Of a stretch of DNA of 35,817 bases, positions 6,001 through 12,000 are shown in pieces (the first letter of the stretch is position 1; each line of letters begins with the position of its first letter). The position numbers are program-made. The stretch is taken from positions 1-35,817 of IMG/VR virus record IMGVR_UViG_2703718836_000012; one strand, given 5' to 3'. Source of the DNA: a virus. Taxonomy: Duplodnaviria > Heunggongvirae > Uroviricota > Caudoviricetes.

Positions 6001-9000
6001 ACTGACGGCGTTTATTCAGTCTGACTGCTTATAATCCTAACGGGGTTATAAGGTTTAGAGCACGGAATATGCTCTCTGAAAGAGAATGTGCGCGGTGATT
6101 GTTCGTTACCACCCGACACAAGTGGGAACGCCCGCGCCACCCTTTGGAACTAAACACAACAAAGGAAAACAACCAGCTTTCAGAGAGGATATTCAATGGG
6201 AGAGAGCGCCGCCTATGGGAAACGGCATTCTCAGGGAGTGCGTATTGTTATACGAGGGTGGAGTGATTCTAATACCTACCCTATAACTTATTATGACACA
6301 AATAGCACAATATGTCAAGATATTTCGTAATATTTATGTTATAGCGCATTCTTCCGCGATCTGGATGGCAAGCTCTCCGAGTTCAACGGTGATGTGTTCC
6401 ATAGCGAGGGCAAGCTCCTCCATATCATTGGCAATGCGCCACGCCTGATCCACGGTGACGGTATCCCCGTTCATCTGCACCAGGTGCTCTACAGCAGCAT
6501 TCCAGTGTTCAAGGGCGGTGATTGCCTGTTCAGTGTATTGCAGCGCTTCCAGGAGCGCGGAGGGCGTTCTCTCACACCACGCCCTATTAACAAGCCACAG
6601 GGCTGGTAGATGCCAAATATCGTGGAAATAGTTAATTAGGGTGTTCATGGTGTCCATAGTTTTATTATTCATTGTTGTTTTCCTTGTCGTCAAAGAGAAT
6701 ATCAAAATCTTGTATGTGGTGAGATAAGCCGTTAGTTTGGGAATACCCCACCCAGTCAACATAGTTTTCTGCGTATAGCTGCCACTTCTTAAGATTCGAT
6801 GAATCAACACGGTATTCACGGCGGCGGCGTGGTTTATAGAAGACGTTATCCGAAGATGCTAAAACATCCTGCAATAGTTCAAACTCTGCCCCTACGGGCA
6901 CCGTTGCAGGGTATTCTATTATTTCGGTGATCCATTCTCCTGGAATAGACTCTCGTGCGAGGTCTTGTAGAGAAGAGGTGTATTTACGTTTGCTGGCGCG
7001 AGTGGCTTTTTCGATTCTAACAATGTTACTTCGTTCTTTTCGTCCCATTCATTCCTCGTAGAGGGAAACTTCCGTGTTTTCTCGTTAATGTCCATACTGC
7101 GTAAAATGCAAATAACCAATACATAGCGATGATCATAAAAGTTTCCCTATTGTGTGTTTAGAAATTAGAGTAGATAAATTCTACATTGTCTCGTTCGATG
7201 TGTTTCAGCGTGAATGATAGATAATGGCTTTCATCGTCGATATCGATCACACCAATGTTGCGCAGCGCACGAAGCCAGAATCTGATCCCGTTATCACTTA
7301 CACTGGATTTATCAGATAGCTCTCCGTAAGAAATTTTAGTTTTTCTGCCCTTCCAGAACCAGATAAGCGCATAATAAACGCCCTTCCCGCTATCGTTGAT
7401 CTGTATCTGGTTTGTGTTGTTCAATTTTATGTATTGTATCAATTAGTCCTCCTGATTAGTTCCAGTGGCGTTGTATTGTGGCGATCCCTTTCTTCATTAG
7501 TTCAGCCGTTTGTCTTTGGGTCAATCCTTTGGATTTGTGTTCCTGTACTTCTTTACGGGTGTTGTTACCTTTAACTTTCTTTCTCACTTTCCCAAATTTC
7601 AGACATTCAATCTTTGCTCCAGGGAAATAATGCTCTTTGATGTATTCAGCTGTTGCCAGATCCGGTACTACGAACACCAGAGGGTGATCAGTGTCAGCAT
7701 TACGGATAGATGTACGGCTAATAAACTGGTAGCACCTTTCATAATTCATCGCGGAGCGTTGCTTCTGTTCAAATTCTTCAACATTCCAGCCGTTAAGCTC
7801 CGCATACTGCCGCCATTTACCTTGGAAATCTTTATCAAGATTACTGCATCCGAGAAATACAGCATTGTGTATGTGCTGGTAATGGTTCAGGCCATAGGAA
7901 GCCATTGAAACACGGATACCACGGGAAGCATCGGTAAGAATTTCATCCCCTATCGTAGTAAACTGACACAGGGATTTATCTCTGTTGGTAGCGAAGATAA
8001 ATTCACCAGGCACGCGCTGGATGATTTCCTGGAGATGTTCGTGAAACACCTTCTGTAATGCTGTCAGGGTGCATCTGTTTTCACATACGGCGACCAGGGA
8101 GATCGGTACACGCTTATGTTTACGTCTTTCAAGTGGCGGCTGTAAATCTTCACCAGCTTTCTCTACTTCGTATTTCGTCAGATGTTCAGCAGCCCAGACA
8201 AACAAACTTCGAGAAGAGCCAGCACCTAAGAGTGTGAGTTGTTCAGCCCATTCTACAGATCTGATAATTGGTGAAGCAGTGAAGGCGAACAGGTGTTTAT
8301 TCTCTTCGTAGAGAAGTCCAGCACCCTGCATAATCGCCCAGAGCAGGCGCTTTAACTCAGCACCATTCGCCTCTGTTTCGTGCCAATAGTCGTAGAAATC
8401 TTCACGCTTATCCTCACTCAGGAATAACAATCCGTCCCGCTCTTCCAGCCAATCCAGGAATGGGAAATTTTGTTCCGTCCGTTTGGTATGCTGCACTTTG
8501 ATGTAAGCGCCAAACATTGCATCAGGGATTTCATCAACAAAGATACTGAAATTACGGAGAAGGTTTTGAAGTTCCGTTTCAAGCGCTGCGCGATAGCAGT
8601 AATGAATGAAACATTGATGTGTACAGATAATAACCGAATGCTGGAAATCGTATTCCAAGGTGGAAATTAGGTGTCTTACCGCTTCTGTTTCGGTGTCCAC
8701 ATGGAAACTCTTCACCCGTCTGTCTTTTAGTTCTTCCCTCACCTGCCCACATAATTCATGTGTTGGCATCACGAGAAGAAAACGAGGGGGAATTGCTTCG
8801 GAATTTGTTAATAAACTTGACTTGATGTAGTGCTGTAACGTGGTGGATTTTCCAGATCCGCAAATTGCATCAACGAATTTTACTACGCGTTTCTTTTCTT
8901 TCATCAGTTTCCTCTTTTTGTAGGATAGTGTGTTTGACAATGGAGTTAACCAGGGCCGGAATACTTACACCTTTAATTGTGGCGGCTTCACGGAGCGCCT

Positions 9001-12000
9001 CGTAAACTTCTGGACTAAAACGAATGTTCATCATTAGTTAATTTCCTTACGGTGTTGGTCATAACGGGCGAGAGCGTCAGCGAACATTTTCATTCGGTCT
9101 GTATACTCCCTCGATTTTGCTGCTTGCATGGATGCGTAAATAACGTGGCGTTTCACCTTACCACTCACCAGATCATTAAAAACCTGGTCACTACTGAAAT
9201 ACTTCAATAACTACCTCCTTCGGATTTTGGATGCAAAAAGCCCCAGGCAGTTACCCCGCCCAGGGCTGAAAAGTTCAGAAGGTTTTCTCCCCTTCATACT
9301 TACCATAATACACTATTTTAATAACGTTTGTCAACCACCTACCATAAAATAAATTTGTCGTCAACAATTTTTTCATAATAGGATAAGACGGCTTCTCAAG
9401 GAAGGGTATCATTTCCGGCTCTTCATGCGAGTGAGCCGATCTTGTAGCTACGCTACATCGCACAATGAACCTGTTAACACATCATTTTAATGATAAGCCC
9501 TTTTACATAATTTTGATGTGTTGAGATCGTAGGCTCACAATGAACCAGCGATCAGCGGGTGAATGTCGCATGAAAAAGTATCTGCTCATGCTCATCCTGC
9601 ACAAAGATGTATGTTCGAGGAATACGAGAACATAAGAGAGATAATTAATAACCTTAGTTTAATTAAGGGTAGTTAGTAGTTGGTTTGTGTCAGTGAGCGA
9701 AGCGAGCATGACAAATTATCTCTACAGGAAAATTTCTTCTCAACAATACTTTTCTGTAGAAGTCACTTTCATGCGCGTGATCAGCGCATACCAAATTGTA
9801 CAGTCCACTTTATGGAGAATTAACCCTCCATCAATCCTGATTACGTGTTAATAGCGAATACTCGCCTCCATAGCGCCGGAAAAATCCCACGCTAATTACA
9901 TTCTAAATACCCGCTAAACCCCAGGTAAAGCGATGCTTAATCTATTCTAAATAACCCGCCTGTAACGCCCTCTGAGCGCCTTTCTCACTTTCAAAGTATC
10001 TTTCATCACTTATACGAAAGCCTTACGCCGTGCGGCTCACAGCGATCATTGTCCACAATGAGCACTTTTATGATAGGTGCAATTTGCTTAAAGACTTTTT
10101 ATGTTTTATCAAATTTATTTGAATATCGATTTTCCATGCCCAAACCCGCCAGTTGGTTAGCATTCTAATCATTTCATCATGCAATCAGTTGCAAGTGCAT
10201 AAACTCCGCATAATCTGTGCATACAGGCAGGTTAGCGCCGCCCTCGCCTAACGGCTCTACATTTATCACCATTAAATCAATGAGATAGATAAAAACCACA
10301 CACAAGCATTGGTAGTGTGATGTTCCGCTGTTGCCGCTGTTCTTCGTGAAGAGTTGAGGATTTGGCAACGTTCAAACAGATGTTTAGACTTTTCAACATT
10401 ATGATTTTGCTAAGATATTTCCAGTTTGTGCGAATTTCGAACAGGAGAATGTGCTTGTTCGCGCTGAACCCTGGACACAATCGCGCCATCTACCACACAC
10501 AACACCGATTATTTTTTGATCATTTGTCTTGCAACTCACTGAAATTGATCATAATGTTTATTTCATTGGTTTAGATGTGTGACCTTGAAGGAGGGTAAAT
10601 TGAACAGAGCAGTGGTGTTAGACGAACAGCAAGCTAAAGCGATCAGGGAATGGCTAAACGCTCATAACAAAAGCCTGATAGCTGACGTTACGTTAATGAT
10701 GCAAGCCGCCGTATTGCGTGTGGGGGATGCCGTAGCTTTGCGCTTCGACGAAGTGATTAACGGAGAGATAGACATAGAAGAACAGAAGACTGGGAAGCGT
10801 AAAGCCCTCACCCTTCCGGCTCCAGTGGTGCAGATGATCGCTCGTCGCCGTGCTGAGTATCCGCATGATGTGCATGTGTTCAGAAGCCAGCGTAACCGAT
10901 CAATGAACAAGCAAGCGCCTGTACGACGCGAAGAAGTGAGCAAGCAGATCGCAGAGGCCGCTAAAGCTATCGGTATTCATGGCACTGTATCGGCTCACAG
11001 TTTCCGCAAAGCTGGCGGGAATGCCATCTACAAGCGTTCAGCAAACAACATCGCTTTAGCTATGACCGTGCTTAATCACAGCAACATCACTGACACCAGG
11101 CGCTATCTGGACTTAGACAAGCAAGCCGTTAGCCGGATTATCAATGAAATGGATTTATGAGAATCGAACACTCAATTTGCAGACACTACAGTACCAAGCG
11201 TTTTGACCCCTCGTGACAGCAAACTGTTGCATGTGTCTTTTGATATTGCTTGTTTCATAACAATGAGGACAAAATGGTACTTCATCTCCAGCTTTCCAAT
11301 AAACATTATCCTTGAAGATAAATGTCGATTTATCTTTCAGCTGATCTTCAAGCTGCTTATTTTTCTGTTCCGCGTCGAAAAGTAGAGTTTGTGTTGTTAT
11401 CGCTTCAATCTTGGCGTTAGCAAGTTCGACCATTAGATTGGCTAACTCAAGTTTGAGCGTAGCCTTGTCCAGTTCATCGCTGTTATTTGCCAGCTTCTGA
11501 GTGATGCTTACCGCTTTATCAAGAATCCCTATAGCTGCCGCCGTGCTTGCCAATACTCCTGCCATAACCTCTCCTACGTACGTATCGATTCGAAGAATAT
11601 GTTACTGCCGATTCCCTGCGCATACCAGTGTGGAGAAGATACCACAAGGATTCGCACACCACCTTCATCACATCACAATCAGAATCCACTTAAAATTCTT
11701 GAAATTATGTTTTAACATTGCAGGCGCTTCTAAATAAAACAATCATTCAGGATGATTTATATTCGTAAAGGTTTATTGGTGTTAGTGGCTTCAACTCTGC
11801 TTCTCTCTGGGTGTGCTGTACAGAAACAACTGGTTCCAACTGGTGGTAGCAAGGCTGATGGGACTGTAAAAATGAGCTACTCTTTCGGGATGTTCGAATC
11901 CCCTAAAGTGAACGTTCAGCAAGGCGCTCAAGCAGCAGCACAACGTTGCGCTGCATGGGGCTATTCTGGTGCTGAGCCTTTCGGTGGTTCAACTTCTGTT

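Follow-up and report, generated by a model that had tools for sequence, protein, structure and literature searches.

The window analysed here is a stretch of 35,817 nucleotides, positions 1 to 35,817 of the IMG/VR virus record IMGVR_UViG_2703718836_000012 (Caudoviricetes). Six genes on its minus strand, between positions 6334 and 9207, encode a 57-aa protein, a 54-aa putative ribbon-helix-helix (RHH) protein, a 482-aa helicase of superfamily 2 (SF2) and three further small proteins of 94, 127 and 112 aa (Table 1). An earlier note on this DNA had described the open reading frames (ORFs) as a small protein, an RHH regulator, an SF2-like ATPase and small partners, and this anatomy was read correctly: all six minus-strand ORFs were present, good Shine-Dalgarno sequences could be read 5-8 nt upstream of each of them, genes 1 and 4 start with TTG, and the RHH gene overlaps the start of the helicase gene. 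The overlapping or abutting arrangement held for four tight junctions, namely a TAATG overlap of genes 1 and 2, a 35-nt overlap of genes 2 and 3, a 13-nt spacer between genes 3 and 4, and a ATGAATAA overlap of genes 5 and 6, but genes 4 and 5 are separated by a gap of 109 nt, which coincides with a recombination or module boundary.

The relatives of gene 1 have ATG at the position of its TTG start. The 94-aa ORF has no coding sequence entry in the RefSeq record NZ_CP110978 of an identical E. coli island (L001 20962-21243). It is coding, since the substitutions in it are mainly at third codon positions (19/24 at third versus 4/1 at second positions), and in three other genera the protein is conserved at 90-97% identity. 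Gene 6 differed from its relative in L006 by 15 synonymous and 30 non-synonymous codon changes. NCBIfam contained no model for any of the six proteins, and the AlphaFold2 (AF2) model of the gene 5 product was poor (predicted local distance difference test, pLDDT, 55) and unfit for a fold search.

Table 1. Positions of the operon, its control elements and other features in the window
Feature	Positions	Strand	Description
Non-coding region	9335..10005	.	inherited with the helicase cassette; candidate origin/operator
P1	9305..9334	-	near-consensus sigma-70 promoter, TTGACA-18-TATTAT, 11/12
Leader intrinsic terminator	9234..9267	-	12-pair hairpin with 8 G-C pairs and T-run; ~30 nt before the gene 1 Shine-Dalgarno sequence
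Gene 1	9034..9207	-	57 aa, TTG start; without known family; travels with promoter and leader
Gene 2	8870..9034	-	54 aa, putative RHH; 3' end overlaps helicase start by 35 nt
Gene 3	7456..8904	-	482-aa SF2 helicase, XPD/DinG-like fold, C-terminal helix-turn-helix (residues 446-481)
Gene 4	7158..7442	-	94 aa, TTG start; weak winged-helix/DnaD-like similarity; close clade only
Gene 5	6665..7048	-	127-aa basic protein; hallmark family of capsid-bearing islands (167 clusters)
Gene 6	6334..6672	-	112-aa acidic protein; coiled-coil-like sequence matches; fast-evolving
P2	6290..6318	-	near-consensus extended -10 promoter, TTGACA-17-TGtCATAAT, directly after the 112-aa stop codon
Capsid gene	4045-5076	-	PF03864
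Tape-measure-like gene	1868-3739	-	623 aa; phrog_16051, 4e-97
Small tyrosine recombinase	10579-11160	+	193 aa; catalytic domain only

The helicase and the putative RHH protein

The helicase motifs ascribed to the 482-aa protein were borne out by an alignment of 33 homologues, in which the invariant columns comprised GSGKS (residues 16-20), PT (47-48), DE (124-125) and P127, as well as SM.S.G.N and YQF..R...R at residues 392-401, including R397 and R401. Motif II reads DEIP in this protein and not D-E-A-D as in the DEAD-box RNA helicases. Pfam recognised only the N-terminal P-loop region, with DEAD at 26.0 bits (residues 11-125), exactly at its cut-off, and ResIII at 24.3 bits, above its cut-off, and the whole protein fell in phrog_2467, the function of which is not annotated. 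Against the PDB chains, the single-sequence search gave nothing and the profile search gave only P-loop and helix-turn-helix (HTH) matches. The AF2 model from the homologue alignment was confident (pLDDT 86.9; predicted template-modelling score, pTM, 0.82). Since 343-346 residues of this model aligned to two-domain SF2 helicases, the protein is, as modelled, a genuine SF2 helicase with two RecA-like domains. What had been taken for a basic C-terminal tail was instead a linker followed by a three-helix HTH, which was recognised in the homologues as HTH_23, GerE or sigma-70 region 4, and which seems more variable in the alignment than the remaining helicase sequence.

The Foldseek comparison of the ATPase returned an XPD/DinG/CasDinG-like fold, with all three proteins in the top ten at an identity of about 10-14% to their structures; other fold neighbours included DdmD and Hna, and no terminase was among the listed structural matches. 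A large terminase was rejected, as the protein has two RecA-like domains, no nuclease domain, and no terminase among its listed structural or Pfam matches. XPD carries an Arch domain after motif II, and the helicase contains an insertion of this type at the same position. The four conserved Fe-S cysteines were absent from the 33 homologues, in which only C15 was invariant and C103 nearly so. Because CasDinG and some other members of the Rad3 family are also without the 4Fe-4S cluster, the missing cysteine set does not exclude a Rad3 relationship. In comparison with XPD, DinG and CasDinG, the 482-aa protein is much smaller and lacks the Fe-S cysteines but has an added C-terminal HTH, and it lies in an island with no CRISPR-like array in the flanking non-coding DNA and no repair context. 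The absence of a repeat array from this flanking DNA also led to the rejection of a CRISPR-associated reading.

The helicase family contained 1,177 clusters (about 1,200 at 50% identity) at E <= 1e-3 among 1.84 billion representatives, and the catalytic motifs were invariant over the family. The source names of the homologues that were inspected gave nothing functional beyond 'DEAD/DEAH box helicase'. In the homologue search, the homologues came from Enterobacterales only, with distant members of 23% identity in T4-like phages. These T4-like relatives, in about 95 phage records from phages of Enterobacter, Cronobacter, Citrobacter, Klebsiella and Aeromonas, are hypothetical proteins of ~420 aa which match over 81% of the length, and the one in Citrobacter phage Margaery (L008 3968-5230) lies just upstream of the gp34 tail-fibre gene.

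The RHH assignment of gene 2 stood in one part: the sequence pattern fits an RHH by eye, and a profile of 11 gene-2 homologues matched the RHH proteins AvtR and ParG (E about 0.004). The PHROG matches were to transcriptional regulator or Arc-like families (E = 2e-4 to 3e-3), and a weak match to NikA was also seen. On the other side, all Pfam matches were sub-threshold, including RHH_4 with 15.9 bits against a cut-off of 25, and the best of them were the antitoxin-type families TacA1 and HicB. A toxin of a toxin-antitoxin pair was rejected, with no match to a known toxin family. Altogether, three of the six proteins resemble small DNA binders.

Conserved order, cassette exchange and the control region

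The operon lies in an island that spans window positions 1 to 13389 (~13.5 kb) at the thrW attachment (att) site, and the order 57 aa, RHH, helicase was kept in every related island examined. The islands bearing this trio were from Escherichia, Citrobacter, Enterobacter, Klebsiella, Raoultella, Pantoea and others, and the order held where the helicase was only 31-40% identical; in P0215 (E = 4e-45 to the family profile), the order was 57, 49, helicase, 120, 93, and, further on, major capsid protein, 67, 603. The overlap of the RHH gene with the helicase start was 35-41 nt in L002, L004, L005 and L022, the loci in which the coordinates were read. A capsid-less lineage (L005, L018-L021) also keeps 58 aa, RHH and helicase, beside a 185-aa serine resolvase in place of the small tyrosine recombinase, and carries cargo such as TIR, SMODS/S_4TM or FabV. 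Because the order was kept across Enterobacterales despite the divergence of the helicase, the trio is, by comparison of the islands, an ancestral backbone and not cargo.

The earlier note had treated the six genes as one coupled unit, and this did not hold, since comparative genomics splits the operon into separate modules. On this comparison it is built of four parts: gene 1 with the promoter and leader, the RHH and helicase genes, the optional 94-aa gene, and the 127/112 pair. Homologues of gene 1 precede the RHH gene in both capsid-bearing and capsid-less islands, and in L007 the homologue precedes a different, 305-aa HTH protein (winged-helix-like) with the same promoter and leader. Only the close clade has the 94-aa gene. 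Distant islands have a homologue of gene 5, 119-120 aa long, behind the helicase gene (hhalign probability 96.4%), and for the 112-aa family no similarity at profile level was seen to the gene that these islands have at its position. Exchange of the replication block leaves the 127/112 pair with the capsid half, and as judged from the alignments these two genes are a separate sub-module tied to that half.

The exchange itself was seen in a sister island of E. coli AR_0128, which is 87% identical to window 1-7158 and 88% identical to 10006-11161 and in which window 7159-10005 is replaced. The swapped segment carries the helicase and RHH genes along with the 94-aa gene, gene 1, P1 and its leader, and ~670 bp of non-coding sequence further upstream; four genes, for proteins of 82, 58, 246 and 153 aa, take its place. 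The 246-aa protein matched 'replication initiation protein' (phrog_8102, 5e-10) and 'replication initiation O-like' (phrog_391, 4e-5). The 153-aa protein has an HTH_36 domain and showed no profile similarity to the 94-aa protein of the window. L007, with its 305-aa winged-helix-like protein, is a third island type. Several alternative replication cassettes occurred among the islands inspected. In the replicon modules of lambdoid phages and satellites, the initiator gene is exchanged together with the adjacent non-coding DNA. In these alignments, the trio, the 94-aa gene and about 0.8 kb of upstream non-coding DNA behave as one exchangeable cassette, and it is mainly from the swap with an O-like initiator cassette that a replication role is drawn.

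P1, the promoter assigned to the operon, ranked among the best two promoter matches within 5400-10700. L013 and L007 have retained it, and in other lineages comparably strong promoters precede gene 1. The leader hairpin downstream of P1 had a folding energy of -36.3 kcal/mol (z = -2.8), and a transcript ending at this terminator would be a short RNA with a predicted length of roughly 65-70 nt. Terminator-like hairpins with unrelated sequences occupy the corresponding position in other islands; they are clear in L011/L014, L012, L015 and L018 and less pronounced in L004/L027 and L022. Across the P1 leader no antisense promoter was detected, and the Rfam search at E <= 1 over 1-13700 gave no RNA family, including the C4/isrK immunity RNA of P4 CI type. 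Downstream of P2 lie ~625 nt (5665-6289) without a credible ORF, followed by the 71-aa, 119-aa and capsid genes. The ~625 nt are 84-87% conserved in sister islands, with conservation seen over 5665-6333, and may serve as a long leader under regulation or as non-coding RNA.

The non-coding block upstream of P1 was more conserved than the proteins. Its core at ~9395-9725 was nearly invariant among islands with differing proteins, and this core was partly conserved (70-78%) in capsid-less islands with a 49%-identical helicase and absent from the O-like cassette. The core contains long-range inverted repeats (TTTTTCATGCGA/TCGCATGAAGAG and GTGAGCC/GGCTCAC), with one compensatory G:C-to-A:T change, and a possible 30-codon ORF, and the AT-rich palindromic centre of the block is at ~9630-9690; this core may function as an origin or a packaging site, or may encode an RNA. 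The region also holds the repeats TCATTGTG and TTCATGCG. In L011, TCATTGTG occurred five times, all five copies of the locus being within this region (reached in 2/300 shuffles), and in L022 repeats of ATAGTTAATA type occurred five times (1/300 shuffles).

The island and its relation to known satellites

In E. coli XYEH3934, an identical island is flanked on both sides by 20 nt repeated in direct orientation, ATGGTGCCGATAATAGGAGT; this repeat corresponds to the 3' end of tRNA-Thr (thrW), and its second copy is at window 13370-13389. Along the minus strand, the island contains the 193-aa tyrosine recombinase (on the opposite strand), ~1.37 kb of non-coding DNA, the six genes, a 670-nt gap, 71-aa and 119-aa genes, a major capsid protein of the lambda-E family (PF03864), a 65-aa gene, a 623-aa tape-measure-like protein, two small genes and a convergent 404-aa integrase. 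Scanning of the island ORFs with Pfam and PHROG revealed no gene for a portal, terminase, tail tube or lysis protein. Because the capsid and tape-measure-like genes are present and portal and terminase were not found, the island would be a phage-satellite-like element and not a phage. In relatives, a Dit-like protein or a head-tail adaptor of PhiTE type is encoded in addition (L004 11266-11967; L002 7973-8449), with portal or terminase in none of them. It would be unusual for a satellite to supply tail-length or baseplate components besides a capsid protein. The position of the small recombinase, next to the module, is conserved across the island family, and its replacement there by a serine resolvase in the capsid-less islands suggests a role in multimer resolution, which would be in keeping with a circular replicon.

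Related islands with the capsid gene were found in 339 of 5,426 complete E. coli genomes, always in the chromosome and many in Shiga toxin-producing strains. The helicase cassette is rare in E. coli, the whole 3.2-kb region being matched in 1 of the 5,426. Island sizes from the Logan contigs were about 13.1-13.3 kb. The 12-14-kb stand-alone Logan contigs were rejected as excised circles, as their ends are the two halves of the tRNA-derived direct repeat (a 15-nt terminal overlap in L004; the 3' and 5' halves of the tRNA in L002); the contigs break at the island ends because the direct repeat is longer than the assembler k-mer.

Variable cargo was seen at other positions of the related islands, comprising TIR, SMODS with S_4TM, Kiwa KwaAB, Eco29kI restriction-modification, Dam and SieB (L005 2354-6313; L007 6257-7802 and 12045-13900; L023 6923-7594; L024 6466-6954), and from its gene content the island family sharing the module or its promoter is a putative carrier of defence genes. 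Directly beyond the att repeat, window 13618-35817 holds gtrA/gtrB/gtr, an acyltransferase, and tail-fibre and tail genes of a prophage, so that the satellite-like island and an O-antigen-converting (gtrABC) prophage stand in tandem at the same tRNA site; this adjoining gtr prophage is a candidate helper.

The phage-inducible chromosomal islands (PICIs) of Gram-negative bacteria, such as EcCICFT073, EcCIMP1 and their relatives, are like the island in their size of ~10-20 kb, their tyrosine integrase, their tRNA att site, and an early regulatory and replication zone followed by a late zone. PICIs often bear a lambda-E-family capsid gene without the remaining head module (PMC10111431), and the att repeat of the island includes TCCTATTATC, the core described for EcCIMP1, whose site is tRNA-Thr between proA and yagU (PMC11773190). 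In contrast to the marker set that defines PICIs, no AlpA and no primase/DUF5906 was found among the 16 ORFs scanned. The integrase gene is first and co-oriented in PICIs but at the far end and convergent in the island, and unlike PICIs the island has a tape-measure-like gene (its relatives have Dit-like genes) and, as its replication candidate, an XPD/DinG-like SF2 helicase with an RHH protein. Of the markers of capsid-forming PICIs, only the major capsid protein was present, and portal, protease, terminases and HNH were not found in the Pfam and PHROG scans; nor were psu, sid, delta and alpha of the P4-like satellites. Judged from its genes, the element would resemble a PICI in the way it works; its putative dependence on a helper is supported indirectly by capsid and tape-measure-like genes in an island where portal, terminase, tail tube and lysis genes were not found.

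Single aspects of the operon resemble other replicons. P4 alpha consists of a primase and an SF3 helicase with a C-terminal origin-specific DNA-binding domain, and like the protein studied here it joins a helicase and a C-terminal DNA-binding domain in one polypeptide, whereas the island helicase belongs to SF2 and has no primase. In the Rep protein of the Staphylococcus aureus pathogenicity islands (SaPIs) and in herpesvirus UL9, itself an SF2 protein, the helicase has a variable C-terminal specificity domain that matches adjacent iterons; in the island the HTH also looks variable and the repeats are lineage-specific, but the putative sites lie upstream of the operon and not downstream of the gene. 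In the copG-repB pair of pMV158, a small RHH repressor is co-transcribed with the initiator, and in pT181 and pIP501 a leader terminator between the promoter and rep acts as a copy-control point. The coupled RHH gene and the leader terminator are like those of the island, but the initiators of these plasmids are rolling-circle or theta Rep proteins and not helicases. The layout of P1 and its leader resembles P4 immunity, in which the early operon is transcribed from a constitutive promoter and the transcripts end early in the leader (PMC10111431), although, as noted above, no P4 CI-type RNA was matched.

A candidate replication operon and its alternatives

The earlier note had left open whether the operon was a phage replication module or a defence cassette. 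The evidence leans clearly to replication through the backbone position of the genes, the O-like swap and the lack of a PADLOC match, with the qualification that the element is satellite-like and not a phage. It is likely, in our judgement, that the six genes are a core life-cycle operon of the satellite-like element and not a defence cassette; that they are specifically an early replication module controlled by the RHH protein and the terminator, with the helicase as an origin-binding initiator, has about an even chance. In such a module, most P1 transcripts of the quiescent island would end at the leader terminator, and the RHH protein would repress and so autoregulate the operon, as CopG does for repB in pMV158. 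A cue from the helper phage, by anti-termination or derepression, would cause the operon to be read through (compare P4 immunity and lambda Q at P_R'). The HTH of the helicase would then bind the lineage-specific repeats in the adjacent non-coding region, possibly assisted by the RHH protein and the winged-helix-like 94-aa protein, and the helicase, acting as an origin-binding initiator like P4 alpha, SaPI Rep and UL9, would open the AT-rich core and unwind the excised circle for replication by a primase and polymerase of the host or helper. The small recombinase would resolve multimers of the circular replicon, and the 127-aa and 112-aa proteins would probably have their role at a later stage, in controlling late genes or in acting on the helper.

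Several points weigh against this reading. The swap argument is positional and not direct, and the support for replication of the island comes from sequence analysis. The repeats of the window are not significant by themselves (3 exact copies, reached in 170/300 shuffles), no DnaA box was found in the non-coding region, and the island encodes no primase, polymerase or single-stranded DNA-binding protein. No homologue of the helicase was found on any of 72,556 plasmids, and the module is therefore not a free-standing plasmid replicon. No XPD/DinG-type helicase is known to act as a replication initiator, and the closest relatives by structure function in repair or in type IV CRISPR interference. 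The roles given to the 57-, 94-, 127- and 112-aa proteins are putative.

Defence against phages or interference with the helper, in which the RHH protein would be antitoxin-like and the helicase, perhaps together with the small proteins, an effector sensing or unwinding the DNA of incoming or helper phages much as CasDinG, Hna, DdmD or HamB of Hachiman do, is unlikely. Satellites commonly interfere with their helpers, CasDinG, DdmD and Hna are among the fold neighbours of the helicase, the best Pfam matches of the RHH protein are of antitoxin type, the helicase has a weak PADLOC match to HamB, and the 112-aa gene is fast-evolving. However, the 54-aa RHH protein has no room for a toxin-binding domain, and neither Pfam nor the AF2 model revealed a nuclease or other effector domain. 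The comparison with PADLOC-DB v2 matched no defence system beyond the P-loop: HamB was matched weakly (E = 3e-4, 16.7 bits) over residues 15-73, which is the Walker A region only, and mad1 and mad8 at E > 1e-3. Capsid-less relatives do hold defence cargo (TIR, SMODS/S_4TM, Kiwa, restriction-modification) in the same islands, but the recognisable defence genes are variable and located elsewhere, whereas the six genes are a fixed-position backbone beside a regulatory region, and what replaces them in the sister island is a replication-initiator cassette and not another defence system.

The same replacement bears on two further explanations. In one, which we regard as improbable, the module would provide specificity for DNA processing or packaging, the HTH-helicase and the RHH protein recognising a pac- or cos-like site in the conserved non-coding block and preparing island DNA for, or delivering it to, the helper terminase, or acting in excision or transfer. 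HTH_23-type domains are common in small terminases and transposases, the combination of an RHH accessory protein and an ATPase recalls the logic of relaxosomes and partition systems (weak NikA and ParG matches), the conserved non-coding block would suit a packaging site just as well, and an element with its own capsid protein in which terminase and portal were not found must redirect the packaging of its helper. This explanation is opposed by the capsid-less islands, which also have the module, by the O-like initiator as the positional equivalent in the sister island, and by the lack of anything terminase-like. Furthermore, the packaging functions of SaPIs, PICIs and P4 lie in the late region and not first in an early operon. 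In the other, which has very little probability, the operon would be a purely regulatory switch, with genes 1 and 2 setting lysogeny or induction and the helicase with its HTH serving as a transcription factor or remodeller that activates P2 and the late capsid operon. The three DNA-binder-like proteins, the strong promoter P2 with a long leader directly after the operon, and the transcriptional control implied by the P1 leader terminator would fit such a switch, but catalytic motifs that are invariant over ~1,200 clusters are beyond the needs of a DNA-binding regulator, the capsid-less islands keep the helicase without a late operon, and the swap partner is again a replication initiator.

With replication as the preferred role, it is conceivable, though doubtful, that the islands are a distinct, undescribed family of enterobacterial satellites with their own lambda-E-type capsid and tape-measure-like protein, a new class of initiator made of an HTH-fused XPD/DinG-like helicase with an RHH protein, a leader terminator overridden by the helper, and replicon cassettes freely exchanged at thrW. 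In the searchable literature, which was incompletely covered, no description of the helicase module or the island architecture was found. Satellites shape the dynamics between phages and bacteria and carry defence and virulence cargo, and few of their replication and induction mechanisms are understood, such as those of P4 alpha, the Pri-Rep of PICIs and RepA of the PICI-like elements (PLEs). If the helicase is an initiator, it would be a fourth, structurally unrelated solution to satellite replication, and it would give a first assigned function to an orphan family of XPD/DinG-like helicases that has no characterised member and also occurs in T4-like phages. The recurring promoter and leader terminator suggest a route by which an anti-terminator of the helper may induce a satellite, and the exchangeable replicon cassettes would be a natural system for studying the specificity between initiators and origins.

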